From: Candidatus Electronema halotolerans
Lineage (GTDB): Bacteria; Desulfobacterota; Desulfobulbia; Desulfobulbales; Desulfobulbaceae
Length of the DNA: 32,000 bases
Direction: 5' to 3'
Assembly: GCA_942493095.1 (NCBI GenBank)
Contig: OW818675.1
Location: 510,001 to 542,000, forward strand
Below, one piece after another: positions 1,278-26,718 of the stretch. How positions within the stretch are numbered: position 1 is the first letter of the stretch; each line of letters begins with the position of its first letter. Made by a program: the position numbers and the translations under genes. The notes under the pieces were generated by a model that saw only the letters and a program-made list of their open reading frames with translations, was not told where the DNA came from and did not search any database.

Positions 1278-1913
1278 TCAGTTCCGCAGCGCGGAATGCG
1301 TTGCAATCAGCCCATCTGCGCCGCAGTCCTCCTCTCCCCGCAACACAACAATCTCCTTGCAGAACTTGGCCACCTCCAGCAGATTGTGCGAAATGCAGAT
1401 GAACAGCTTGTCCGGGAACAGCCGCTTGAGTTGCAGGATGATGCTTTCGCGCAGCTTCTCATAGACATTGGCAAGGCTCTCATCCATGATCAGCAGGTCA
1501 AAGTCCTGCAACAGATAGCGCAGCAGGTTGATGCGGTTGCGCTGGCCCAAGGAAAGCTGGGAGAACGTGGCCCGCATCAGTCCGCTGAGGCCGAACAGCT
1601 CTGTCAGTTCACGGCGCAGCCCGCCCTTGCCCGGCGGTGAGACCGCGTCCAGATGCTCTGCCAGCCGTGTCCAGCCCGGCAGCCGCTCCAAGTTGTGCGT
1701 GTAGAGAATTGTGCTGATGCCTTCTGGCCGCAATTCTCCGGCAGCAGGGGCAAGGCTGCCTGCCAGGATGCGGGCCAGCGAGCTTTTCCCAACCCCGGAC
1801 GGGCCGAAGACCGCGTTGAAGCCCGGCCCGACCAGCCTGAAGCTCAGTTTATCCAAGACCTTGGCTTGGCTGTTTGGATACATGAAACAGAGATTACTGC
1901 ATTGCAGAAACAT
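1278..1913 (-). CDS. ABC-type ATP-binding protein with no permease or binding-protein gene nearby
   Basis: Walker A GPSGVGKSS, signature-like LSLGQRNR, Walker B LLIMDE, H-loop ISHN. GAGGAG RBS lies 7 nt before the ATG. Confidence 0.85.
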   Translation of the reverse strand: MFLQCSNLCFMYPNSQAKVLDKLSFRLVGPGFNAVFGPSGVGKSSLARILAGSLAPAAGELRPEGISTILYTHNLERLPGWTRLAEHLDAVSPPGKGGLRRELTELFGLSGLMRATFSQLSLGQRNRINLLRYLLQDFDLLIMDESLANVYEKLRESIILQLKRLFPDKLFICISHNLLEVAKFCKEIVVLRGEEDCGADGLIATHSALRN

Positions 1914-1968
1914 GATCGCTCCTCAGCAAAGAACAGAACTGGAGGCAGATGAATAGAGCCAGCGGAAC

Positions 1969-3315
1969 TCAGCTCAATGACAGGCTGTTGAGCAGCCCAA
2001 GCAGGCCGTTCTGCTGGAAGAGAAGAACAGCCCTGTCTGCCGGAGAGCGGCGGTCGGCAAGCCGTTCCCGTAAAGGGTTCAGAAAGGTTTCCTCGCCCAC
2101 GGCGCGTTGACGCAGACCGTTTGCCGCAATTTCCAGCAGTTCCGCCAGCAGGGGCAGGACTGACTCGCCCTGCATCCGAGCGGAAAAACCTTGGTTCAGA
2201 GCATCAGTGCGGAGCAGCCGCCAGTCCTGCCAAGAAAAACGATTGAGCAGCCGTTCCGCCGCCGTGAGATTTTCGATCAATCCCAGCACCAAAGCCTGCG
2301 AGCAGAGGCTTTCTCCGGGCGGCTGCTGGCAGCAGACGCGGGCCTCGACCGTTCCGAATTTAGGAGCCAGCCGTCCGTTGAACCATGCATACCCGGCCTG
2401 ATTGACAATGTCCTCCAAAGCAGGAACAAGAGTGCGGGACTCGCCGCTGACACTTCTGCCGTCAACAGATTCAGCGGCAAAAAAATCGAAAAAACTGCCT
2501 GTAACAGGCAAAGCAAACGATTGGCCATTACGTTCAACAGTCTGCATTTTGAAAGCGCAGAGCTGCCGAACATAGTCTTTTATGTCGGTAAATTGCGCCG
2601 CCATGCCGATCTGCTCCTCACGATTTGGAAAGCACTGGCCCCAGAGCAGCTCCCGCATCGCTCCTGACCTGCCGTCAACATTGCCCTGCCAGATCGGCGA
2701 ATTGGCATGAAGAATGATGAACAGCCCGGCCAAGCCGTTGAGCACATTGACCACCCTGACCGCCTCAGCACGGCTGACATCAACATGGGTCTGGCTGGAG
2801 GCGGTGATGCCGAGGAAATCGCTGTCATACCCGTGCTCAGGGCTGACAAAGCGGTTGGCGGACCAATCTTTGAAGAACAGATAGCGGCTCTTGGGCGTGA
2901 TCAGCCGTCTGTGCGGCGGAGAAAGCGGCTGGATGCCGTAACCCAAGATCAGCGCGTCCTGTTCGGCAAAATATTGCGAAAGCGGCCGCAGCAGGCTGGT
3001 CAGGGAGCGGTTCAGGGCAAAGAGGTCTTTTGCTGGAGCCGGAGCTATTTCAATGGTGCTGTAACCAAGGTCTGTGCAGATGATGTCGCCAGCCCGTTCC
3101 GCATAGACAATTTTGCCGCTGTCCGCATCCTTTTTCAAAGCAAAGCCTTGCTGCTCCAAAAGCGCATACATCTGGCTGATGACCGGATAGGCGACCGCTT
3201 CGCCGTTGCTGCTGACCACGGGAAATTCACCTTCCATGCCCACCCAACGCGGCTTGTCCGGGCTGTGGGTGAAATTCCGCGCAAAGATGCTGACAAGGGC
3301 GGCCAGACGGCTCAT
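1969..3315 (-). CDS. glutamate--cysteine ligase family (GCS2 / carboxylate-amine ligase) protein
   Basis: 448 aa. The motifs GMEGEF, TIEIAP, QTHVDV, ANSP and EARVCCQQP fit my memory of the GCS2/YbdK/EgtA-type fold. A GGAGAG RBS precedes the start. Confidence 0.7.
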   Translation of the reverse strand: MSRLAALVSIFARNFTHSPDKPRWVGMEGEFPVVSSNGEAVAYPVISQMYALLEQQGFALKKDADSGKIVYAERAGDIICTDLGYSTIEIAPAPAKDLFALNRSLTSLLRPLSQYFAEQDALILGYGIQPLSPPHRRLITPKSRYLFFKDWSANRFVSPEHGYDSDFLGITASSQTHVDVSRAEAVRVVNVLNGLAGLFIILHANSPIWQGNVDGRSGAMRELLWGQCFPNREEQIGMAAQFTDIKDYVRQLCAFKMQTVERNGQSFALPVTGSFFDFFAAESVDGRSVSGESRTLVPALEDIVNQAGYAWFNGRLAPKFGTVEARVCCQQPPGESLCSQALVLGLIENLTAAERLLNRFSWQDWRLLRTDALNQGFSARMQGESVLPLLAELLEIAANGLRQRAVGEETFLNPLRERLADRRSPADRAVLLFQQNGLLGLLNSLSLS

Positions 3316-3363
3316 GATTTCGGCTCTCCGATAATTTCCGGGGTTGTAATTCCAGTGCTTTTG

Positions 3364-3549
3364 GTGAATTCAAGTTCCAAGTGCAACTTTTTTTGGTTGC
3401 AAGAAAAGGCAGTTACGGGAGTGTCACAACTTTGCTTTTGTCGCTAACTAAGAGAAAATAATTGAAAATTTACATGAAGTATTCAAAGTGCCAGCCAACC
3501 TATGCTTTTTGGATAACCAAAAAAAGTTGCACTTGCGAGTTGAATCCAC
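3364..3549. repeat. MITE-like element with 35-nt terminal inverted repeats around a 116-nt AT-rich core
   Basis: Arm 3364-3398 is GTGAATTCAAGTTCCAAGTGCAACTTTTTTTGGTT. The reverse complement of 3515-3549 is GTGGATTCAACTCGCAAGTGCAACTTTTTTTGGTT, matching 31 of 35. It sits in a low-GC 373-nt gap inside an otherwise compact gene string. Confidence 0.55.
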
Positions 3550-3688
3550 AACTCACTTTACGGAGTAGTTATCTCAGTAATGCTAACCAATCGGTATCAC
3601 ATAATTTTCGAGACAGCAACACTCAACAGGGGCACCACCCGATTTTGTCAACCACAGAAAAACTCGGAGAGCCATGATTTCTCCTTAC

Positions 3689-4978
3689 TTAGTCAGGGGG
3701 CAGAAGAAGAACCGGAGAAAAACCATATCCCGGCTTGTTGTTGTCACCGAAATGGATGCGCGCTTCTGGCTGGCCGCCAGTTGTCCGGCGGAAATGACCG
3801 ATGCGGGCCATTGGCACGGCGATCAGTTCCTGCTCAGACTGGCTGAACATCAGGCGCAGCTCAATGATTTTTTCCTGTCCGTCATCAGTGCGGAAGGTTG
3901 CAAACCGCACTTTGCGCTGGGCAATGTATTGATCCAAGAGCTGGTCGGCTTGCAGCGCGGTCAATATTTTTTGTGACGGCGAGAGAATCAATTCCCGGCC
4001 TGCTGCGCCCAGTTTGTGCTTCCAGACATAATCAGCAAAGGCCAGCCTGCCCTTGGCGAAATCTTCTGCGGCTTCGGCCAGTTCCACACTCTCCGGGTTG
4101 AGCGGATGCTGGACATGGACAAGCTGCTGCTTGGCGCAGGTCAGCGATCTGGCCGGATGATTGCAATAGCGCAGTCCTTCATAATATTGGTCATAGCGAA
4201 AACGCCATTTTTCTACATTGTGTGGATAGTTATCATCAAAAATGGCTTCCAAGGCCAGCACCCGGTTGTAGAGCTGCTGCACTTTTTTTGTTCTGCCAGT
4301 TGCTGTTTTGTACAGCAGCTCACCGTTGCAGGCGAACAGGTCAGCAGCATCTATAATTTCAATGCCAAGATTGATATCCTGCCGGGTGGCATGAAACTCA
4401 AAATTGGTTTTCTGCTCGCGCACCTGCCGATCAATGAGGATGTTGCCGTCCGGGCTGTCGCCGACCAGAATTTCCCGCATCAGCCTGATGAAGTCAGCAC
4501 GCTCCGGCTGCTCTGTGCCGGTGCCAAGAAAGATGCTGCTTTCCGGCAGACAGGCTTCCCGCAGCAGGCCGCTTAGATGCGCTGCTGTGACCGGATAGGT
4601 CGGCACAGCCTGACATTCGATCAGCCGCAGCCCTTCTGTAGTGACTGCCGCGTCGAGGTGAAAAAAGGCCGCTCCACCCTTCTGCTCCAGCGGCGAGAGA
4701 TTGGCCTGCGGCGGGAGAAAGCCGTCCGGCACAGGCAGGAATGCGCTCTGTTCCGTCATCTGCGCCAAAAGCTGCCTGCCGAGCAGAAACAACTCTTGGG
4801 CAAGATCGTGCCGCAGAACGACAAAATACTCAGCCAGCCGCATCTTTCCGCCGTTTTCCGCGCCGTTGCGGAACTGACAGCAGTCTTGCAGCCAGCGTTC
4901 CATTTCCTTGTACAGGCTGGACGGAATTTTTTCAAGGGCGGCACCGGATGCGCTCTCAATGTGGGCTGTGCAACACAT
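3689..4978 (-). CDS. glutathionylspermidine-synthase-like (pre-ATP-grasp) amide ligase
   Basis: 429 aa. 'FFHLDAAVTTEGLRLIECQAVPTYPV' resembles the RFDF...KLLEYNADTPT core of GspS-type ligases. The start codon is uncertain because there is no clear SD at 4978. Confidence 0.55.
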   Translation of the reverse strand: MCCTAHIESASGAALEKIPSSLYKEMERWLQDCCQFRNGAENGGKMRLAEYFVVLRHDLAQELFLLGRQLLAQMTEQSAFLPVPDGFLPPQANLSPLEQKGGAAFFHLDAAVTTEGLRLIECQAVPTYPVTAAHLSGLLREACLPESSIFLGTGTEQPERADFIRLMREILVGDSPDGNILIDRQVREQKTNFEFHATRQDINLGIEIIDAADLFACNGELLYKTATGRTKKVQQLYNRVLALEAIFDDNYPHNVEKWRFRYDQYYEGLRYCNHPARSLTCAKQQLVHVQHPLNPESVELAEAAEDFAKGRLAFADYVWKHKLGAAGRELILSPSQKILTALQADQLLDQYIAQRKVRFATFRTDDGQEKIIELRLMFSQSEQELIAVPMARIGHFRRTTGGQPEARIHFGDNNKPGYGFSPVLLLPPD

Positions 4979-5055: not shown

Positions 5056-5131
5056 TCGGATAGATGAACAGCAGATTTCCGCACTCCAAAAATATGATCG
5101 CTCCTCAGCAAAGAACAGGGCTGGAGACGCT
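5056..5131 (-). pseudogene. degenerate copy of the RBS plus first ~15 codons of the ABC ATPase gene
   Basis: Aligns with 1874-1949, including a 26-nt identical core ATGATCGCTCCTCAGCAAAGAACAG. On the minus strand it reads GAGGAGCGATCATA TTT TTG GAG TGC GGA AAT CTG CTG TTC ATC TAT CCG AGG TGA, i.e. (I)FLECGNLLFIYPR*, against MFLQCSNLCFMYPNS in the real gene. The ATG has become ATA and there is an early stop. Confidence 0.5.
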
Positions 5132-5254: not shown

Positions 5255-6256
5255 ATGCTCATCCTCGCCCTTGAAAGTTCCTGCGATGACACGGCGGCGG
5301 CAGTGCTGGCAGACGACCGGCAGGTGCTGGCCAACGTGATCAGCAGTCAGTTTGCCGTGCATGAAAAATACGGCGGCGTGGTTCCTGAACTGGCCTCGCG
5401 CTGCCATATTGAAGCGGTCTGGCCAGTGGCGCAGGAGGCCTTGGACAAGGCCGGAGTCAGCTTGACCGAGATCGGCCTGATTGCCGCCACCCAAGGGCCG
5501 GGACTGGTCGGCTGCCTGCTGGTCGGCTTCACCTTTGCCAAGTCCTTAGCCTTGGTGCGGCAGATACCCTGCGTGGGCGTGGATCATTTAGCCGGACACC
5601 TGTTAGCCATTCTTTTGGAAGATAAGAAACCAGAATTTCCCTACACCGCCTTGGTGGCATCCGGCGGCACCACCTCGCTCTTTGCGGTCAGCAGCCCGAC
5701 TGAATTCCGCCTGCTGGGCCGCACCCGCGACGATGCGGCAGGCGAGGCCTTTGACAAGACTGCCAAACTGCTCGGCTTGGGCTGTCCGGGCGGCCCGGCA
5801 GTGAGCAGGCTGGCTGAACAGGGCCGAGCTGATGCCTTTGCCTTTCCCCGCGCCCTGTCTGACGGCAGCGTGGATTTCAGCTTCAGCGGCCTGAAAACAG
5901 CAGTGGTCAATCAAGTCAACCAGTTCCGCCAAGCACATCAGCCTGTGCCGGTTGCAGACATCTGCGCTTCGTTTGAGCAGGCGGTTGCCGATGTTTTAGT
6001 GGATAAAACCATGCTTGCGGCAAGACGCTGCGGCTGCAGCCGGATTGCCCTTGGCGGCGGCGTGGCAGCCAACCGCAGGCTGAGAAAACTCATGGCCGCC
6101 CGCTGTGCCGAGGCAGGCTTGGCCTGCTTCCTGCCCTCGCCAATTTTTTGCACCGACAACGCAGCCATGATCGGCCTGGCCGGCTTTCATCAGTTTGCCG
6201 CTGGCAGGACGGTCGGCCCGGATGCGGACGCATTTTCCCGTTCGCCGCTCAATTGA
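5255..6256 (+). CDS. tsaD: tRNA N6-adenosine threonylcarbamoyltransferase
   Basis: MLILALESSCDDTAAAV N-terminus, GPGLVGCLLVG, VDHLAGH metal-binding motif, GGVAAN. Length of 333 aa is typical. Confidence 0.95.
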   Translation: MLILALESSCDDTAAAVLADDRQVLANVISSQFAVHEKYGGVVPELASRCHIEAVWPVAQEALDKAGVSLTEIGLIAATQGPGLVGCLLVGFTFAKSLALVRQIPCVGVDHLAGHLLAILLEDKKPEFPYTALVASGGTTSLFAVSSPTEFRLLGRTRDDAAGEAFDKTAKLLGLGCPGGPAVSRLAEQGRADAFAFPRALSDGSVDFSFSGLKTAVVNQVNQFRQAHQPVPVADICASFEQAVADVLVDKTMLAARRCGCSRIALGGGVAANRRLRKLMAARCAEAGLACFLPSPIFCTDNAAMIGLAGFHQFAAGRTVGPDADAFSRSPLN

Positions 6257-6258
6257 CC

Positions 6259-6813
6259 ATGTTCCGCAAGCTGTCCCGTCTGCCACGATACTATCTGCTC
6301 CGCGTCAAGCGGCTGAAGGGCGATCCTGAATATTTAGCCCGTGGCTTTGCCTTTGGCGTGTTCATGGGAGTCCTGCCCTTGGTGCCGGTGCAGACCATCA
6401 TCCTCGTGCCGCTGACCATCCTTTTCCGGGTCAGCACCATTGCCGCCCTGATTGCCGGGACCTTGGTCAGCAATCCCCTGACCTTCATGCCCCAGTATTA
6501 TCTGACCTGGAAGATCGGCAACGCGATCGTGCCGGGCGAAGTCTCGTGGGAGCAGCTCAATGCGGTGCTGCACGAGGTGGCCCGCTTCATGGCTGAGGAA
6601 AGCCTGCTGCGCGGCATTGCTGACAGCCTGACTGCAATCAGCCGACTCGGTCTCAACACAGTTGCTGTTCTGCTCACTGGCGGGGCCATCATCGGCATTC
6701 CTGCCGGTCTGATCAGCTACTGCTTTGCCCGCAAATTCTTTTATGCTGTCCGCGAGCGGCGGCTGAAACGCCAGCGTCTGCTCATAGACAGACCCAGAAA
6801 GCAAGACAACTGA
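6259..6813 (+). CDS. DUF2062 family membrane protein (copy 1)
   Basis: In-frame ATG 3 nt after the tsaD stop. YYLLRVKRLKGDPEYLARGFAFGVFMGVLPLVPVQT followed by TM segments. 184 aa. Confidence 0.8.
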   Translation: MFRKLSRLPRYYLLRVKRLKGDPEYLARGFAFGVFMGVLPLVPVQTIILVPLTILFRVSTIAALIAGTLVSNPLTFMPQYYLTWKIGNAIVPGEVSWEQLNAVLHEVARFMAEESLLRGIADSLTAISRLGLNTVAVLLTGGAIIGIPAGLISYCFARKFFYAVRERRLKRQRLLIDRPRKQDN

Positions 6814-6817
6814 CTGT

Positions 6818-7372
6818 ATGGAAACTGTGCTCCGAACTGCCCTGCGCCTGCCGCGTCTGCCACGGTATTATTTTCTCCGGGTCAAGCGGATGAAAGGCGA
6901 CCCGGAATATTTAGCCCGCAGCTTCGCCTTTGGCGTGTTCATGGGAGTGCTGCCGCTGATGCCGGTGCAGACCATCATTCTGGTTCCGCTGACCATCCTC
7001 CTCCGGGTCAGCACCATCACCGCCATGCTGGCCGGATATGTGGTCAGCAATCCGTTGACCTTTGTCCCCCAGTATTATAGCTGCTGGAAATTAGGCAATG
7101 CCATCCTGCCAAGCTGGGTGAGCTGGGAGCAGATTCACGCCGCCTTGCAGATCATCATCAATCCAGCGCCACAGTCAGACCTGTTCCAGAGCACCATGCA
7201 CGGTTTGACCGCTCTGAGCAAGCTCGGCTTCAAGGCCATAGCCGTGATGGAAACCGGCGGCACGATCATCGGCCTGCCCATCGCCATTGTCAGCTATTTT
7301 CTTGCCCTCAGATTCTTTTTGACCGTCCGGCAGAAGCGGGCGGTCAAGCATCGTTTGGATAATCGCCGCTGA
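6818..7372 (+). CDS. DUF2062 family membrane protein (copy 2, tandem paralogue)
   Basis: YYFLRVKRMKGDPEYLARSFAFGVFMGVLPLMPVQT. Also 184 aa and collinear with copy 1. Confidence 0.8.
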   Translation: METVLRTALRLPRLPRYYFLRVKRMKGDPEYLARSFAFGVFMGVLPLMPVQTIILVPLTILLRVSTITAMLAGYVVSNPLTFVPQYYSCWKLGNAILPSWVSWEQIHAALQIIINPAPQSDLFQSTMHGLTALSKLGFKAIAVMETGGTIIGLPIAIVSYFLALRFFLTVRQKRAVKHRLDNRR

Positions 7373-21490: not shown

Positions 21491-21942
21491 TGAGCGCATC
21501 TGCCCGCATCCGCCGGGCCGAGCAGGCCGACATTCCTGCGTTGCTCGACCTGCTGCAACTGCTCTTCAGCATTGAGAAAGATTTTGTTTTCAATGCGGCC
21601 AAACAGGAGCGCGGACTGCGCCTGCTCTTGGCCGAGAGCAGGGCAGCAGTCATGGTTGCCGCGCAGGACCGGCAGGTGATCGGTCTATGCAGCGGGCAGC
21701 TCCTGATTTCCACAGCCCAAGGCGGGCTGTCAGCGCTGGTGGAAGATGTCGTTGTCGCGCCCGCTTGGCAGGGCAAAGGAATCGGCAGGCAGCTTTTGGC
21801 AGCAATCAGTGCATGGGCGGTCAGTCATGGCGCGAGCCGGGTGCAGCTCCTTGCCGACCAGAATAACACCCCGGCCTCAGCCTTTTACCAAAAAACAGGC
21901 TTTCAAACGACAGCAATGATCTGTCTGCGGAAAATAATATGA
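21490..21942 (+). CDS. GNAT family N-acetyltransferase
   Basis: VEDVVVAPAWQGKGIGRQLL is the acetyl-CoA motif A (Q/RxxGxG/A). The start overlaps the ferredoxin stop (TGATG). Confidence 0.85.
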   Translation: MSASARIRRAEQADIPALLDLLQLLFSIEKDFVFNAAKQERGLRLLLAESRAAVMVAAQDRQVIGLCSGQLLISTAQGGLSALVEDVVVAPAWQGKGIGRQLLAAISAWAVSHGASRVQLLADQNNTPASAFYQKTGFQTTAMICLRKII

Positions 21943-22370
21943 AGATTCAGCCTTTGCAGAGCTTGCAGCCAATCAGTGGCTGGGAGGATTTTTTCCGGCA
22001 CGGCCAGGGCTATCTGAACGCCGCTGTCGGAGCGCACCGCAAGCAGGTGCAGGCCTTCACACCGGAGATTCTCTATAACTTGGCGGCAATGGCGATTGAG
22101 AAATTTGTCATGGCCGCCCTGATGCGGCACGGGGCCATGCCCTACAACCATACTATGGTGGATTTGGTTGAAGCGATGGAGAAAACCTTTCCGGGCAGAC
22201 TGGGGCAAATTCAAGACGACCTGCTCCGTTTAGATAAATACCAGGAAATCTGCGATCTGGACGGCTTCAAGATCAGTCCGCCAAAGCCGGAGGAAATCCC
22301 GGCCATGCTGGAAGTGGCAGAGAAGCTGCGGGAGCTGGTTCTTGGAGAGCTGCTTGCCTGCAACGTATAA
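21939..22370 (+). CDS. HEPN-like helical protein
   Basis: AAMAIEKFVMAALMRHGAMPYNHTMVDLVEAMEK resembles the HEPN 'A.EKalKA.l...G......H.l..L' helix pair. The start has a 4-nt overlap (ATGA) with the GNAT gene. Confidence 0.45.
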   Translation: MKIQPLQSLQPISGWEDFFRHGQGYLNAAVGAHRKQVQAFTPEILYNLAAMAIEKFVMAALMRHGAMPYNHTMVDLVEAMEKTFPGRLGQIQDDLLRLDKYQEICDLDGFKISPPKPEEIPAMLEVAEKLRELVLGELLACNV

Positions 22371-22399
22371 AAAACAAACAGATAAATCTGGTTGCGCAG

Positions 22400-22699
22400 A
22401 TGACAGAACGAAAGCTCGGTGTGGTCAAAGAAATCGTCGAAGAGGTGGGCATGGGCATTTCCCATGTCTATGAAGATTTGGTCTTTCTCGACCATAACGC
22501 CATCTTGCTCCAGTTCACCGATGACAGCAGCAAACTCCTGCTGCGCATCAACCGCGAGGCGGATCAAGAGACGGCTGCCAGTGGTGCGGCTCTGCTCAAG
22601 CAGGCGGGGTTGGCGCGGGAAATGCAGTTTGTGGAAAGCGGCAGCTATGCGCTGGCCCAGGACGGGCCGGAACAGGTGCGGATTGAGTTTTTCTCCTGA
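22400..22699 (+). CDS. hypothetical protein (99 aa)
   Basis: Co-oriented and tightly spaced within the operon. No family recognised and the start is uncertain. Confidence 0.5.
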   Translation: MTERKLGVVKEIVEEVGMGISHVYEDLVFLDHNAILLQFTDDSSKLLLRINREADQETAASGAALLKQAGLAREMQFVESGSYALAQDGPEQVRIEFFS

Positions 22700-22739
22700 G
22701 TTGTTTTAACGAAAATAATGCCTGAACGGAGGTCGGATC

Positions 22740-22961
22740 ATGGCAAAAGCAGATGTGGAAAAATTGCTGGAAGCAGGCGGCAAGGATAAGAAGATCAAGG
22801 CAAAATATGATGTTCCGGCCACCAAGGAAGAGTTTGTCGCCTTGGCAGCGCAGGACGGCTACAACTTCACCGTGGAGGAGCTGGAAGCTGTGCTCAAAGA
22901 ATCCGGCGATGTCTTTGAAAAATACGGCAATCCGCCTAAACGGTCAATTTGGTGGACATAG
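22740..22961 (+). CDS. Nif11-domain small protein / possible Nif11-type leader peptide
   Basis: GGAGG RBS. ADVEKLLEAGGKDKKIKAKY...KEEFVALAAQDGYNFTVEELEAVLKE matches the Nif11 N-terminal domain pattern, followed by the 19-aa tail SGDVFEKYGNPPKRSIWWT. Confidence 0.7.
   Translation: MAKADVEKLLEAGGKDKKIKAKYDVPATKEEFVALAAQDGYNFTVEELEAVLKESGDVFEKYGNPPKRSIWWT
22855..22961 (+). repeat. direct repeat copy A (functional 3' end of the Nif11-like gene)
   Basis: Aligns without gaps to 23891-23997, differing at 10 of 107 nt. Confidence 0.85.
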
Positions 22962-22968
22962 AAAGACA

Positions 22969-23005
22969 AAAGAAGGATGCAAGTAATGCATCCTTCTTTT
23001 TGTTT
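22969..23005. terminator. Rho-independent (bidirectional) terminator
   Basis: AAAGAAGGATGCA (22969-22981), loop AGTAA, TGCATCCTTCTTT (22987-22999), then TTTGTTT. This is a 13-bp stem. An A/T-rich run on the other side also gives a U-tract for the minus strand. Confidence 0.7.
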
Positions 23006-23056
23006 GACAGGATAGGCAATCTAAATCATTAGATTGATTTTAGCTGATTGCCTTTT

Positions 23057-23599
23057 TTACATTGGAATGCAGAACAACCTCTGGTCGAACGATTCCTTGC
23101 CGAATATGTACCAAACACTTCCTGCTGCACTCAAGCAGATTTTATGCACATCGAATGACAATGTCAAAGAAAGATCAGCACCCGCCAATCCTACATTTGG
23201 GTGAAAACCAACAGTTACGTTATGACTGTCAAAATTGTATGATGTGCACCATACTTTGGCACCTGCAACAATAAGACACACTTTAAGCTCTGCTTGCCAG
23301 TCTGATGGCGTTCCGCATACCTTTAATTCTCCCCCTATTCCTACGATTTTATACAGAGAAACTTCAAATGGTTGGGTTTTGCAGTTGTCAACAGTTTTCA
23401 GTGCGCCAAGAACAGGCATACGAGCTGCTGCTGCACGAACCATAGGAGCTGCTGTGGCAGGCTCTGCCGCATCTCTGCTAATAGCAGAGAGAATCTGCTC
23501 TTTAAGCTTGTCAACTGGCATGTCAGCATGCGCTGCCATCATCTGCCAATCTTTCTCGCTAACATGAGAAGATACAGCTTGTAATGTATCCTTTTCCAT
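23057..23599 (-). CDS. orphan hypothetical protein (180 aa from the second ATG)
   Basis: GGAGGA lies 7 nt before ATG 23599; the track ORF starts at 23614. Ala-rich helical N-terminal third, beta-rich C-terminal part with 6 Cys. No family recognised. Confidence 0.6.
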   Translation of the reverse strand: MEKDTLQAVSSHVSEKDWQMMAAHADMPVDKLKEQILSAISRDAAEPATAAPMVRAAAARMPVLGALKTVDNCKTQPFEVSLYKIVGIGGELKVCGTPSDWQAELKVCLIVAGAKVWCTSYNFDSHNVTVGFHPNVGLAGADLSLTLSFDVHKICLSAAGSVWYIFGKESFDQRLFCIPM

Positions 23600-23659
23600 T
23601 TTTACATCCTCCATGTAATTTGTTAACTTCCATCCAAGATAGATGGAATAATTTTGTCC

Positions 23660-23686
23660 ATTATAATTTGGCTAAAAAAAAATCAA
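23660..23686 (-). promoter_or_regulatory. sigma-70-type promoter candidate for the cassette-1 gene
   Basis: On the minus strand: TTGATT (23686-23681), 15 nt spacer, TATAAT (23665-23660). The spacer is shorter than optimal. Confidence 0.3.
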
Positions 23687-23890
23687 TAAAAAAGTATTGT
23701 TAGGAATAATTATTATTCTTGAAAGTAGGCAAAAATATAGTGTTGCAGGTTTCCGAAGCAGAGTGTTTTAAGGAGTGGTTCGCATTCAATTTGCTAATTT
23801 TACTTGCTTAATATTGGCACAGGCTAACGTAACAGAAAGTTGCAACACTATAGGTTCAGTTTATTAAAAAAAATGAAGAATGGAATAGGC

Positions 23891-23997
23891 ACGGCTACAA
23901 CTTCACCGTAGAGGAGCTGGAAGCGGTGCTCAAAGAATCCGGCGATGTCTTTGAAAAATACGGCAATCCGCCCAAGCGTTCCATCTGGTGGACCTGA
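23891..23997 (+). pseudogene. start-less second copy of the last 34 codons plus stop of a Nif11-like gene (repeat copy B)
   Basis: Encodes GYNFTVEELEAVLKESGDVFEKYGNPPKRSIWWT*, identical to copy A. The in-frame upstream sequence runs back to TAG at 23851-23853 with no ATG or GTG. Confidence 0.7.
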
Positions 23998-24026
23998 GCG
24001 GAACCAGAGGCAGCAGGGCGGCTCAA

Positions 24027-25133
24027 TCATCTTGCCGGGATGCTCCGGGATGCCTTGACCGCCGCTGCTGCCGCATCATGAAACCAAGGCCGGAACTGGC
24101 GGATTCTGCTGTTCTCCCGGCTCGGATGAACCCGGTTGCTGAGGAGAATGACAATCAGCTCCTGCTCCGGGTCGATCCAGAATGAAGTGCCGGTGAAGCC
24201 CAGATGACCGACACTTTGGGCGGAGAAATGCCTGCCGCTGCTGGATGAGCCGGGCGTGGGTCTGTCAAAGCCGAGACACCAGGTCTGGCCGGAGAGCTGC
24301 GGCTGCAAGCCTTGGGACAGAAAAGCCGCCCAAGAGCTGGCCACGGCTTCCCCTCTCTCACCCTGCCAATTATCCAAAATCACCCCGCAGAGCTGCAACA
24401 CCCCGCTGACTGTGCCGAACAATCCCGCATGACCGGCAAGGCCGTTTACGAGCCAGCAATGCTCATCATGCACCTCACCCCGCATCATCCTGCCCCGCCA
24501 TGAGCACTGCTCTGTGGCGGCGCAGTTCTGCCTCTGCTCCACGCTGACCTGACAGAGCAGCTCTTTTCCCAGCCCCAGCGGCCCCGCAATCCGCTCCTGA
24601 AAATTGGCGGCCAAATCCTTGTCAGTCAACTCCTCCGCTATCCACCCCAGCAGAATGAAGCCAAGATCGCTGTACAAACAGCGGCTCTCCGGCGCATAGG
24701 CCATTGGCTCGTTGAGAATGAGACGAAGCAACCGCGCCTTGTGGTCCGTTTTTTGCACCGGCGCAAAGGTCTTGAACCACGGCTGATAAGCGGCCAGCCC
24801 GGATGAATGCGAGAGCAGCCTGCGCAGCGTGATCTGCTGTTTGTCCGGCGGCACATCAGGCAGCAGATCAGCCAGCCTGTCTTCCAGCCGGAGCCGCCCT
24901 TCCGCAAAAAAATCGTAGAAAAGCAAGGTGGTCGAAAGGGCCTTGCTCAACGAGGCCAGATCAAACAGGGTGGCCGCCGTCACCAGGGACTGGTCGCGGC
25001 TGTCCATGACTCCGGCCCACGCTGTCCACGTCTGCCGGGCCGGGCCAGTGCCGCAGGCGACTGCCGCTGCCGCGCCGGGAAAAACCTGTTCGGCAAGCCC
25101 CTGCCGCAGGAGCCGCTGTAGTGTCTGGATCAT
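24027..25133 (-). CDS. beta-lactamase-family serine hydrolase (class C / esterase / PBP-like)
   Basis: SLSKAL (SxxK), YSDLGF (YxN-like) and GHLGFTGTSFW (K/H-T/S-G box). Confidence 0.85.
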   Translation of the reverse strand: MIQTLQRLLRQGLAEQVFPGAAAAVACGTGPARQTWTAWAGVMDSRDQSLVTAATLFDLASLSKALSTTLLFYDFFAEGRLRLEDRLADLLPDVPPDKQQITLRRLLSHSSGLAAYQPWFKTFAPVQKTDHKARLLRLILNEPMAYAPESRCLYSDLGFILLGWIAEELTDKDLAANFQERIAGPLGLGKELLCQVSVEQRQNCAATEQCSWRGRMMRGEVHDEHCWLVNGLAGHAGLFGTVSGVLQLCGVILDNWQGERGEAVASSWAAFLSQGLQPQLSGQTWCLGFDRPTPGSSSSGRHFSAQSVGHLGFTGTSFWIDPEQELIVILLSNRVHPSRENSRIRQFRPWFHDAAAAAVKASRSIPAR

Positions 25134-25153
25134 GTTTGAGGGTCATATTTGGG

Positions 25154-25298
25154 TGTTGAAAACTTGTTGAAAACCTGTTGATAACTTGTTGATAACTTCC
25201 TGCCGCCGCTGCCGCCCGCCGAGTTATCAACAAGTTATTAACAAAGTTATCAACACCTCTTTTACTGAAAAACAAGCAGGTTGCGTTAGTTTTCAACA
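25154..25298. repeat. array of eight 11-bp iteron-like units, 4 forward and 4 inverted, around a GC-rich spacer
   Basis: Forward units: TGTTGAAAACT (25154), TGTTGAAAACC (25165), TGTTGATAACT (25176), TGTTGATAACT (25187). The spacer is tcctgccgccgctgccgcccgccg. Inverted units: AGTTATCAACA (25222), AGTTATTAACA (25233), AGTTATCAACA (25245), AGTTTTCAACA (25288). TTATCAACA matches the DnaA-box consensus TTATCCACA at 8 of 9. A tract that is 27/30 A+T follows at 25321-25350. Confidence 0.8.
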
Positions 25299-25363
25299 GG
25301 TGCGGCCCGTCCCAACAACAATAGGTTATATATATACAATATATTTATTAAGGCCGCTCCGAC

Positions 25364-25453
25364 CTGTGGAAAACTGCGTCATAAAAAAAGCCCGTGACCA
25401 AAAAGATCACGGGCTGCGAACATCTTTGAACGAAAAACGGTCAGCGGCTCACC
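25364..25453. repeat. direct repeat R1 (distal copy of the dsrH-like 3' end and terminator region)
   Basis: Aligns to 26458-26549 with a few substitutions and 1-3-nt indels, roughly nine-tenths identical by eye. Confidence 0.75.
25383..25415 (-). terminator. Rho-independent terminator (within R1)
   Basis: On the minus strand: AGCCCGTGA, loop, TCACGGGCT, followed by TTTTTTT. Confidence 0.7.
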
Positions 25454-26457
25454 GTAGCTGAAAAAAAGAGGCGGAAAACTGGAAACTGCGTTGGAGATTC
25501 AAATTATCGTTATATATCAAACAGATTCAGTTGAACAAAACCGGGTTCTTTCAAATTGATTTTTTGCTGGGCAGACTCACCTTCTTTCAAACCGCCTAAT
25601 CTGTTGATATTTTTTACTATTGTCGGGACACAATATTCGGATGCGCTTTCTTTTACTTGGAGGGTATTAAAACGAAGCACTCTCCAGCCTTCTGTTTTCA
25701 AATTATTGTCACGAACATTATCTTTTGCGGCTTGTTGACGATTTGCGTGCCAAAAGTCTCCGTCTGTTTCAACGTCAATCTTTCCTGATTGACAATATAT
25801 TGCAAAATCCAAAGCATAGTGTCTGTTATTAACATTTACAAACTCCTGACGTTCCGCATTTATCTGCAACCGTTTAAATTCTGACCATAAACGGTCTTCA
25901 AGGGGACTTGCATCGAAAAGATCATTTATTTCAACTGCTGTGACAAACTTTTCCCATGTTGTCGAAATGAACACTAATCGTCTGTAACGCCTGCTGAGAA
26001 TAGGTTTTGGTAAACGTTTAAGGGGCGGATCGATAAAAATTTGGTAATACCTTTTCCTGCTTTTTACATTAGCAGGTTCATCAGGAAAAAGCTGCCATCT
26101 GTAAGCCTTTTTGATATCTAATATTTTCGCGTAATAGTTTATCGCATAAGCATCTTTGCCAAAGACTTTCGTCATGTAAAACGCTATAAAGCAAGGAGGC
26201 CAACGCTTTTTCAGCCATTTCTCAACGCTGCTGACAGGAATCCGATACCAATGCTTTTCATTCACAATGGAAAAATCATGCAAATTGTTAATTATTGCCA
26301 CAAGCACTTCGTTATGCAAATCGTTATCCATTACAACAGCTTCAAATGAAGGCCTTCAACAGCAGCCAAGTTAATCCGCGCATCTGCCCCCTCCACGCGA
26401 GAACTTCAGCACTTTCCGAAAAATCATCCAAGGCATGGAATTTCAGACAGTACCAAT
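25454..26457. mobile_element. low-GC single-gene insertion ('cassette 2') between R1 and R2
   Basis: Markedly AT-rich compared with the flanks and carries only the DUF559-type nuclease gene. No recombinase gene is present. Confidence 0.45.
25510..26331 (-). CDS. DUF559 / Vsr-like restriction-endonuclease-fold protein with an uncharacterised N-terminal domain
   Basis: The C-terminus YALDFAIYCQSGKIDVETDGDFWHANRQQAAKDNVRDNNLKTEGWRVLRF is the classic DUF559 pattern (D...E.DG..H....D..R...L...GW.VLRF). The N-terminal ~150 aa (HWYRIPV..., FIAFYMTK..., RRLVFISTTW) is not assigned. Confidence 0.75.
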   Translation of the reverse strand: MDNDLHNEVLVAIINNLHDFSIVNEKHWYRIPVSSVEKWLKKRWPPCFIAFYMTKVFGKDAYAINYYAKILDIKKAYRWQLFPDEPANVKSRKRYYQIFIDPPLKRLPKPILSRRYRRLVFISTTWEKFVTAVEINDLFDASPLEDRLWSEFKRLQINAERQEFVNVNNRHYALDFAIYCQSGKIDVETDGDFWHANRQQAAKDNVRDNNLKTEGWRVLRFNTLQVKESASEYCVPTIVKNINRLGGLKEGESAQQKINLKEPGFVQLNLFDI

Positions 26458-26549
26458 CTGTGAAAAACTGCGCCATGAAAAAAGCCCGTGACCAGAAGAT
26501 CACGGGCTGCGAAACATCTCTGAACGAAAAAGCTCGTCAGCGGCTCACC
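26458..26549. repeat. direct repeat R2 (proximal copy, containing the dsrH-like stop codon and operon terminator)
   Basis: See R1. The repeat ends at GGTGAGCCG, which contains the TGA stop at 26545-26547. Confidence 0.75.
26478..26508 (-). terminator. Rho-independent terminator of the tusA-dsrEFH operon (within R2)
   Basis: On the minus strand: AGCCCGTGA, loop, TCACGGGCT, followed by TTTTTT. Confidence 0.7.
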
Positions 26550-26718
26550 ACCAGCAGACAGTCTTGTCAGCGGCGAAAATCTTGCTCACCAGCTCATCGT
26601 AGTTGGGATTTTCCTCATAGAGACGGAATTCATCCGCCTCCCGGTCACGGTTGAGAATCTCAACCAAGGTCGTGACCACCTCGTTCGGCTCGGAACGATA
26701 CACTTGCAGCATTTTCAT
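26545..26718 (-). CDS. 57-aa DsrH/TusB-like mini-protein
   Basis: Below the ORF-track cut-off. GGAGGAG RBS lies 10 nt upstream. MKMLQVYRSEPNEVVTTLVEIL... and ...NYDELVSKIFAADKTVCWW resemble the N- and C-terminal ends of DsrH/TusB with the middle missing. Alignment is by eye. Confidence 0.45.
   Translation of the reverse strand: MKMLQVYRSEPNEVVTTLVEILNRDREADEFRLYEENPNYDELVSKIFAADKTVCWW

Follow-up and report, generated by a model that had tools for sequence, protein, structure and literature searches.

Gene-end duplications beside small gene insertions in Candidatus Electronema halotolerans: probable scars of homology-anchored recombination between lineages

Homology-facilitated illegitimate recombination (HFIR), described in transformable Acinetobacter, Pseudomonas stutzeri, Streptococcus pneumoniae, and Escherichia coli conjugation, is defined by one homologous end and one illegitimate end (PMC3240628). 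It relies on no dedicated recombinase or att site, and it adds genes for which the recipient has no homologue. Donor fragments that bridge sister chromatids can give rise to duplications and to transformation-induced merodiploids (PMC3784515), and displaced 3′ gene ends have been ascribed to HFIR-like events (PMC5361080). Here, we analyze a 32,000-nt stretch of DNA, hereafter the window, from Candidatus Electronema halotolerans (GCA_942493095.1, contig OW818675.1, 510,001–542,000 of the forward strand). It contains three structures in which a pair of diverged direct repeats, copied from the end of a gene, flanks additional DNA: cassette 1 (repeat pair R1), cassette 2 (R2), and a ligase segment (R3). 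Comparison with relatives makes it moderately probable, in our judgment, that these structures are scars of homology-anchored additive recombination with the DNA of related lineages, and not a mobile element.

What we observe resembles HFIR in pairing a short, in-register anchor at one end with microhomology at the other, and in the features named above. Reported HFIR products, however, typically delete recipient DNA, whereas here 69–107 nt are duplicated and the gene stays whole. The anchor is also very short in our case, a conserved block of ~17–26 nt, and the process is read back from its scars. Campbell insertion-duplication and merodiploidy (PMC3784515) are alike in flanking the added DNA with direct repeats and in being reversible by recombination between them; in merodiploidy, moreover, one donor fragment bridging two chromosome copies produces a duplication. 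The merodiploid duplications of S. pneumoniae span 100–900 kb between long insertion sequence (IS) repeats, in contrast to ~100 nt here, and the left part of our distal copy does not look clearly donor-derived, as it would in a simple Campbell product.

Integration of e14 and phage 21 into icd was reportedly described by Hill and colleagues in 1989. In that system, the insert supplies a substitute 3′ end whose differences are mostly synonymous, and the original end persists as a pseudogene fragment on the far side (PMC13626634), much as at our locus. Element e14 is, however, a prophage of 15 kb that brings its own integrase and has a defined att core, whereas cassette 1 measures 0.9 kb, has no recombinase, and is a mere chromosomal neighbor of the Nif11 gene in a related lineage. 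Orphan 3′ ends of Rhs and contact-dependent inhibition (CDI) genes, and effector-immunity arrays of type VI secretion systems (T6SS), are similar in that incoming DNA, with its anchor in the conserved portion of a gene, pushes the former end of that gene downstream, that fragments and additional genes pile up, and that an HFIR-like cause has been proposed (PMC5361080). The new end in those systems encodes a different toxin, a diversity on which selection acts, unlike here, where the peptide is identical and the added genes are unrelated. Integron cassettes share with ours a size of ~1 kb, a single gene, the lack of their own recombinase, and bounding repeats of ~60–140 nt. Their attC sites nevertheless form one structural family of imperfect inverted repeats with intI and attI nearby, whereas our repeats stem from three unrelated gene ends, only R2 contains a hairpin (an intrinsic terminator), and no integrase was found in the window.

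Three gene-end repeat pairs in one window

R1 comprises 22852–22957 and 23887–23993 (106 nt, 7 mismatches), R2 comprises 25348/25364–25453(62) and 26442/26458–26549 (about 81–88% identity, with small indels), and R3 comprises 1876–1944 and 5058–5126 (81–84% identity). These pairs had been noticed in a sequence-only reading of the window, and all three are present. They are copies of three unrelated gene ends with no common sequence among them. Direct repeats of 55–400 nt at a spacing of 0.3–6 kb number 12.5 per 100 kb of the window, compared with 0.54 per 100 kb (553 kb) and 0.16 per 100 kb (620 kb) in two sets of other Desulfobulbaceae loci. This density, ~20–80 times that of related loci (~1.3 Mb compared), shows that the recurrence of the repeats is not due to chance.

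Cassettes 1 and 2 are AT-rich, as had been reported (29–44% and 38% GC, respectively, against 55–62% in the flanks), and each carries one minus-strand gene, which we term C1 and C2. The ligase segment had been taken to repeat the pattern at a gene 5′ end. Its repeat pair is there, but at 50–59% GC its composition is not atypical.

Independent sequence data support the reality of these structures. The Ca. E. halotolerans genome is a circular metagenome-assembled genome derived from Nanopore and Illumina reads (PMC10030654), and C1 is a 100% match to the hypothetical protein GCAAIG_02485 of this organism. Short-read unitig L157 (ERR9670067) equals window 22907–23955 at 100%, spanning the novel junction at 23886/23887; unitigs L001 and L002 equal window 26064–23943 and 25388–23943; and R2 is seen in three independent assemblies. 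This agreement excludes an assembly artifact or chimera. Gene order near the three loci varies in almost all relatives that we compared.

Domain searches of the cassettes and the remaining main open reading frames (ORFs) of the window turned up no transposase and no integrase, IntI included; attC-type repeats of one family were likewise not found, the repeats being unrelated to one another and without an Rfam match. Scans of the window for tRNA, tmRNA, and Rfam families returned zero matches, so the repeats are not the ends of RNA genes. The cassettes have neither terminal inverted repeats nor a short identical target-site duplication. A search for dispersed repeats found no further copies of the cassette flanks in any compared sequence. 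Tandem duplication is rejected as a source of the repeats because the sequence that follows copy 1 differs from that following copy 2.

Cassette 1: empty site, donor-type arrangement, and mosaic

For cassette 1, the empty site, the donor-type arrangement, the mosaic gene, and the anatomy of the junctions can each be observed. The locus is organized as follows.

22740–22961, plus strand: Nif11-domain gene, 73 aa, intact and mosaic (Pfam Nif11, E=5e-14)
22852–22957, plus strand: R1 proximal copy (copy A)
22968–23000, no strand assigned: bidirectional terminator hairpin with a 14-bp stem, between Nif11 and C1
23057–23614, minus strand: C1, 185 aa, of no known family
23615–23886, no strand assigned: AT-rich region (29% GC) 5′ of C1, ending at the illegitimate junction 23886/23887
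23887–23997, plus strand: R1 distal copy (copy B), a displaced Nif11 3′ fragment with codons 39–73 and TGA
24027–25133, minus strand: β-lactamase-family serine hydrolase, the backbone gene between cassettes 1 and 2

R1 corresponds to the last 35 codons (39–73) of the Nif11 gene. Codons 1–65 of the intact gene belong to the backbone lineage, and codons 66–74 (22935–22961) are those of a foreign, type I allele with the stop TAG. Copy B lies 30 nt from the stop of the serine hydrolase gene, which served as the anchor in our synteny comparisons.

Two Joint Genome Institute (JGI) metagenome contigs, L062/L063, were found via their C2 homologue. At 88–89% nucleotide identity, they are colinear with window 29737–23891 and 22957–20665. 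Their sole Nif11 3′ end, of 103 nt, aligns with copies A and B alike and terminates 26 nt from the hydrolase stop, which is the exact position held by copy B in the window. L062/L063 thus provide a precise empty site for cassette 1.

Homologues of C1 form only three clusters among 5.8 billion proteins. The sole cluster with readable flanks, L150/L151, comes from a more distant relative than L062/L063, and it lies at the same locus, adjoining Nif11. Genes for a GNAT, a 143-aa protein, a 99-aa protein, and Nif11 are followed there, contiguously, by a terminator and a convergent C1, in an arrangement colinear with window 21545–23715. The two C1 proteins share 74% amino acid identity, homology in the region upstream of C1 reaches 23715, and the Nif11-C1 terminators are homologous, with compensatory changes in the stem. 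On the far side of C1, L151 has an ammonium transporter gene and not the hydrolase. The two gene orders define two Nif11 3′ flanks, Nif11-terminator-C1 (type I) and Nif11-hydrolase (type II), and the window reads as a type II backbone on both sides of a type I-derived segment, 22935–23886. That cassette 1 is the decayed residue of a larger island, as had been suggested, is unlikely given its colinearity with the native Nif11 neighborhood of L150/L151.

We compared the R1 copies, L062, and L150 codon by codon and applied Fisher tests. Copies A and B differ at 2/26 codons within codons 40–65, compared with 7/7 degenerate codons within codons 66–74 (p = 8e-6). All of these differences are synonymous, and the stops are TAG in A and TGA in B; the last 27 nt of R1 are accordingly saturated with synonymous differences, and the left 80 nt are nearly identical. 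At the third positions of the tip (codons 66–74), B matches L062 at 8/9 and A differs from L062 at 7/9, and the tip of A has CCT and TAG in common with L150. Because the tips differ only synonymously, both must descend from alleles that were functional and long separated, an origin that rules out, for R1, a target-site duplication diverging in place. At codons 49, 53, 54, and 55, A and B carry common derived states relative to both L062 and L150, which indicates that the duplicated 80 nt are of single origin and arose within the window lineage. A cassette 1 event that postdates the split from L062 would fit these states.

As a general account of the repeats, target-site duplication by a staggered-cut insertion is extremely improbable. 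The near-identity and single origin of the left 80 nt of R1 would suit it, but the last 27 nt of copy A belong to a different functional allele (7/7 synonymous, other stop) and are followed by the donor terminator. Furthermore, the true transposition scar in the window (3322–3672, described below) has a 9-bp duplication and terminal inverted repeats, and the cassettes have neither.

The switch of copy A to the allele of the other lineage falls at codon 65/66, right after the block TTTGAAAAATACGGCAAT CCG CC. The core of this block, TTTGAAAAATACGGCAA, is conserved in the window, L062, and L150, and the reading frame and protein sequence are unaltered across the switch, as at an in-register junction. 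At the opposite junction, 23886/23887, GGAATAGG/CACGGC compares with GCGCAGG/ACGGC in the gene; the two have AGG (3 nt) in common, and there is one extra C. In cassette 1, a homeologous junction in register at one end is hence paired with a 3-nt microhomology junction at the other, and 80 nt are duplicated. This anatomy fits HFIR or a Campbell-like additive event. As expected of HFIR, the insert is contiguous with its anchor gene in the donor-type genome (L150/L151); contrary to its usual outcome, recipient DNA between the junctions has not been deleted, 80 nt of it having been duplicated.

Campbell-type integration had been proposed for these cassettes on sequence grounds, and its central elements, dependence on homology and the lack of a recombinase of their own, stand. 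The textbook version, in which a small circle with ~100 nt of gene end integrates by one crossover and leaves two reciprocal hybrids, so that the left part of the distal copy would be donor DNA, fares less well. Direct repeats do flank every insert, and the unitig graph fits a circle plus an empty site as well. At the two left differences in R1, A equals L062 and B does not, one B state being GCG as in L150, and this relationship is reversed on the right, which is a reciprocal pattern. The donor segment would, however, itself have to be mosaic, near the recipient at codons 39–65, with four recipient-lineage states, and saturated at codons 66–74. The left part of copy B differs at 2/12 codons, against 7/7 in the tip (p = 7e-4), through two private changes of which one is the L150 state, and the circle would require an unexplained circularization joint exactly at codon 39. 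We consider the textbook circle unlikely. That 80 nt with window-lineage states are near-identical beside a saturated last 27 nt favors duplication of recipient DNA, through HFIR or a template switch, over a repeat borne by the donor; the single origin of the 80 nt also disfavors a donor-borne repeat, unless later gene conversion homogenized the copies.

A further alternative takes the window-like structure as ancestral. The repeats would derive from older tandem paralogues or an older merger, homogenized by gene conversion, and the apparent empty site of L062/L063 would be a later deletion. Deletion between the repeats yields exactly the L062 pattern, R2 persists across speciation (see below), and the divergence of C1 (74% amino acid identity) is near that of flanking vertical genes (67–72%), as if C1 were vertically inherited. 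Nevertheless, the four derived states that A and B share, missing in L062, would need later gene conversion, and there are only 2 differences in 80 nt even though B would have been a pseudogene since before the window and L062 split. Since an earlier duplicative merger of two functional alleles would still be needed, this explanation, which we judge quite improbable, shifts the event back and does not replace the mechanism.

Additional observations concern C1 and its upstream region. C1 had no family match, and its confident AlphaFold model (predicted local distance difference test [pLDDT] score of 83), for which we found no significant PDB match, begins with a domain of three helices, which a disordered linker connects to a beta-meander domain rich in Cys. 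The gene is low in GC in both lineages that have it. The AT-rich segment contains a perfect 12-nt inverted repeat (23736–23747/23841–23852; TATAGTGTTGCA/TGCAACACTATA) with arms 93 nt apart, situated just inside the illegitimate junction and without a counterpart in L150/L151.

Cassette 2 and the ligase segment

Cassette 2 lies on the other side of the serine hydrolase gene.

25348–25462, minus strand: R2 distal copy, with decayed last codons of a 57-aa gene, 3′ untranslated region (UTR), and terminator (hairpin 25415–25389)
25510–26331, minus strand: C2, 273 aa, with an N-terminal domain of unknown function and a C-terminal DUF559/Vsr-like endonuclease domain
26442–26549, minus strand: R2 proximal copy (hairpin 26508–26483), directly 3′ of the stop of the 57-aa gene
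26545–26718, minus strand: 57-aa gene, the final gene of a TusA/DsrE-like cluster, whose end is duplicated in R2

R2 reaches from the final few codons of the 57-aa gene through its stop and 3′ UTR to its intrinsic terminator, and both copies have a hairpin with an 11-bp stem followed by a T run. The distal copy runs on colinearly into the ancestral intergenic region. At seven Electronema loci (L003–L005, L008–L011), C2 is missing, and the 57-aa gene is followed after ~285–300 nt by the hydrolase gene. With cassette 2 absent from these loci and cassette 1 absent from L062/L063, both cassettes show presence/absence polymorphism among relatives. L062/L063 and L064 have C2 (85–86% amino acid identity) at the site that it occupies in the window, with both R2 copies present. 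Identities are 85–89% between proximal copies, 77–85% between distal copies, and 69–81% between proximal and distal copies. This clustering by position indicates that the duplication is older than the split of the three lineages and was inherited vertically; cassette 2 is thus old, and other Electronema species are without it. Relative to L003 (Ca. Electronema sp. KV), five sites favor the proximal copy, four favor the distal copy, and three favor neither, both copies being equally far from this outgroup.

The C2 family has >1000 members at 60–85% identity in Desulfobacterota and Chloroflexota, a conservation unusually high for so wide a spread that suggests frequent horizontal transfer. The copies in Electrothrix (L065) and in a Desulfococcaceae genome (L069) are without flanking repeats, which shows that such repeats do not belong to C2 as such; in L069, C2 adjoins toxin-antitoxin genes. 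In profile searches, C2 matched the DUF559/Vsr-like domain and, weakly, ‘homing endonuclease’ and HNH families. We rejected a homing-endonuclease origin of R2, as homing makes no flanking duplications and C2 occurs without repeats in L065 and L069.

These comparisons also bear on site-specific recombination, whether by a recombinase acting in trans on a cis-mobilizable element (CIME) or an Xer-dependent module, or as the remains of an integrase island of the kind that e14 forms in icd. In its favor, cassettes 1 and 2 are AT-rich, the C2 family crosses phyla at 60–85% identity, and the arrangement resembles e14/icd/icdC, with its supplied gene end bearing synonymous differences and its displaced fragment (PMC13626634). 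It is difficult to reconcile with the lack of common sequence among R1, R2, and R3, with the lack of integrase and transposase domains in the window, or with the colinearity of cassette 1 with ordinary chromosome beside Nif11 in L150/L151, where no island remnants are found. In addition, C1 is limited to this locus, the C2 homologues of L065 and L069 have no flanking repeats, and cassette 2 has remained in place through three lineages. We regard a site-specific origin as very improbable. This applies to a recombinase encoded elsewhere, which the sequence-only reading had offered as an option, and its suggestion of a distinct class of cassette element is likewise unlikely, with C1 confined to three clusters and one locus and C2 homologues that lack repeats.

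Other features of the cassette 2 region are recorded here. R2 abuts an array of TTWTCAACA boxes at 25154–25298, upstream of the hydrolase gene, that holds 7/8 of the boxes in the window (expectation for the entire window, 0.6). Four of them keep an 11-nt register on one strand and three are on the other, next to a TATATATA stretch. The boxes are kept in all aligned Electronema loci and are one mismatch from the DnaA-box consensus TTWTNCACA; the array may represent a DnaA-box cluster like that of an origin, or a series of operators. The hydrolase and 57-aa genes have the same direction in all Electronema-type loci with both and are convergent in Desulfobulbus and other Desulfobulbaceae (L012–L024 compared), a contrast that implies inversion of the hydrolase gene at the base of the Electronema group. 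The downstream neighbor of the hydrolase gene varies in close relatives, being Nif11 in L062 and nadA in L064. Across 140 kb of Electronema-type loci, a short diverged direct repeat turned up in just one further place, in L008 (16668–16774/19644–19749; 107 nt, 87% identity, 3 kb apart). Each copy is just 3′ of a minus-strand gene, and between them lie truA, a 194-aa ORF that we take to be putatively L,D-transpeptidase-like, and, as judged by eye, a probable toxin-antitoxin pair. This repeat may be the same kind of scar.

The third structure, with R3, has the following features.

1876–1944, minus strand: R3 proximal copy, comprising the leader and ribosome-binding site (31 nt) and first 13 codons of an ABC ATPase gene (1278–1913)
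1969–4978, minus strand: R3 insert, with genes for a GCS2-family carboxylate-amine ligase (1969–3315) and a 429-aa protein (3689–4978)
5058–5126, minus strand: R3 distal copy, a displaced ABC 5′ end in which ATG has become ATA

Both genes of the insert run in the direction of the ABC gene, and the 429-aa protein is without a family match. The distal copy has states (E, I, and CCG) that are common to the orthologues in L158 and L156 and absent from the proximal copy, so it derives from a different, more ancestral-like allele. In L155 (96–98% identity), whose contig begins within the 429-aa gene, the 429-aa, GCS2, and ABC genes occur in the same order and are followed by mreB. The ABC gene precedes permease and binding-protein genes in Electronema sp. 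JM and sits between ribF and rlmN in L158; the contexts in L156 and L158 are wholly different. A metagenome scan with the ABC ATPase for an empty R3 site returned only relatives of ≤60% identity, without synteny. R3 appears to follow the same logic as cassettes 1 and 2 but is not polarized by these relatives.

Colinearity between the window and L155 stops at 1333 within the ABC gene, at a breakpoint unrelated to R3. The ABC product of the window is without its normal C-terminus and has a novel 17-residue tail, and compared with a 97%-identical homologue it has a D→Y change in the SLANVD motif. The idea that the host gene is left intact therefore holds for cassettes 1 and 2, which keep a complete copy, and fails for R3, where the ABC gene is truncated at 1333 and carries D→Y. 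The ATPase is an orphan without a permease close by and is possibly in decay; a 76%-identical paralogue of it (P0128) also occurs in Ca. E. halotolerans.

Two other features lie nearby. An insertion resembling a miniature inverted-repeat transposable element (MITE) occupies 3322–3672 (351 nt, 40% GC) and is missing from the 98%-identical L155. Its termini are inverted repeats of 9 bp (GGCTCTCCG/CGGAGAGCC), and the 9 bp of target sequence duplicated around it (CATGATTTC; 3313–3321 and 3673–3681) take in the start codon of the GCS2 ligase gene. No further copies of the element were found in any compared sequence. At 6148–7372, two tandem DUF2062 genes form a direct repeat of 265–300 nt with 78–82% identity. 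Electrothrix (L065) has one DUF2062 gene, between tsaD and RrnaAD (a ksgA-type rRNA adenine dimethylase), which identifies the pair in the window as a lineage-specific tandem gene duplication.

A putative route of gene gain and its significance

Homology-anchored additive recombination, the explanation that we favor, would begin with related lineages that hold different genes beside one conserved gene. A donor fragment would contain the end of the shared gene together with the neighboring gene or genes of the relative, and it would pair with the recipient via a short conserved block inside the shared gene, creating the in-register, homeologous junction. The non-homologous far end of the fragment would then be joined at a microhomology a few dozen bases upstream, duplicating the interval between; either a template switch or a sister copy of the chromosome probably took part in this second join. 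The expected product is an intact gene with a donor tip, followed by the donor neighbor gene and a displaced copy of the recipient gene end. Overall, the process would be a duplicative variant of HFIR that is formally near Campbell integration of a circularized fragment. We infer the route of DNA entry, the linear or circular nature of the intermediate, and the action of the same mechanism at R3 and at the older R2. Selection probably explains why we see only events that kept a complete gene copy.

Several points weigh against this explanation. Classical HFIR usually deletes, and a duplication requires two chromosome copies or a template switch. L150/L151 is a relative of the donor allele and not that allele itself, 6/27 nt of the tip being different. 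A genuine Campbell event followed by gene conversion could likewise have left the 80 nt on the left nearly identical. The age of R2 prevents its polarization, with orthologous copies that cluster and are equally far from the outgroup, and for R3 the insert is not compositionally atypical and the metagenome scan gave no empty site. The three repeats are alike in size (69–107 nt), a similarity not readily expected if the second junction were random, and natural competence or another DNA-entry route is undocumented here for cable bacteria.

A new mechanism of cassette acquisition, or a new class of element, is not supported. The event is of a known kind, and the locus is a clean new example of it, from an uncultured lineage and at unusually high local density. 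Cassette 1 represents an unusually clean natural gene gain without mobile-element machinery: since sequenced relatives provide the empty site, a donor-type arrangement, and the recombinant, the two junctions are legible at single-base precision. The locus likewise illustrates that a repeat-flanked, AT-rich cassette is insufficient grounds for calling a mobile element. Where a displaced gene end differs from its counterpart by synonymous changes only, it can instead mark homeologous recombination between lineages with unlike gene orders.

A broader proposal, which we raise as a speculation more apt to fail than to hold by a wide measure, is that cable bacteria, or at least Ca. E. halotolerans, routinely capture the neighbor genes of related lineages by a recombinase-independent, short-homology, duplicative process that leaves 70–110-nt scars far denser than in other Desulfobulbaceae. 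Multiple chromosome copies or proximity to the replication origin might favor such capture. If the density of scars holds genome-wide, it would inform how uncultured cable bacteria exchange genes. If the proposal is true, the scars would constitute genome-wide, partly reversible variation in gene content and a readable record of donor lineages.

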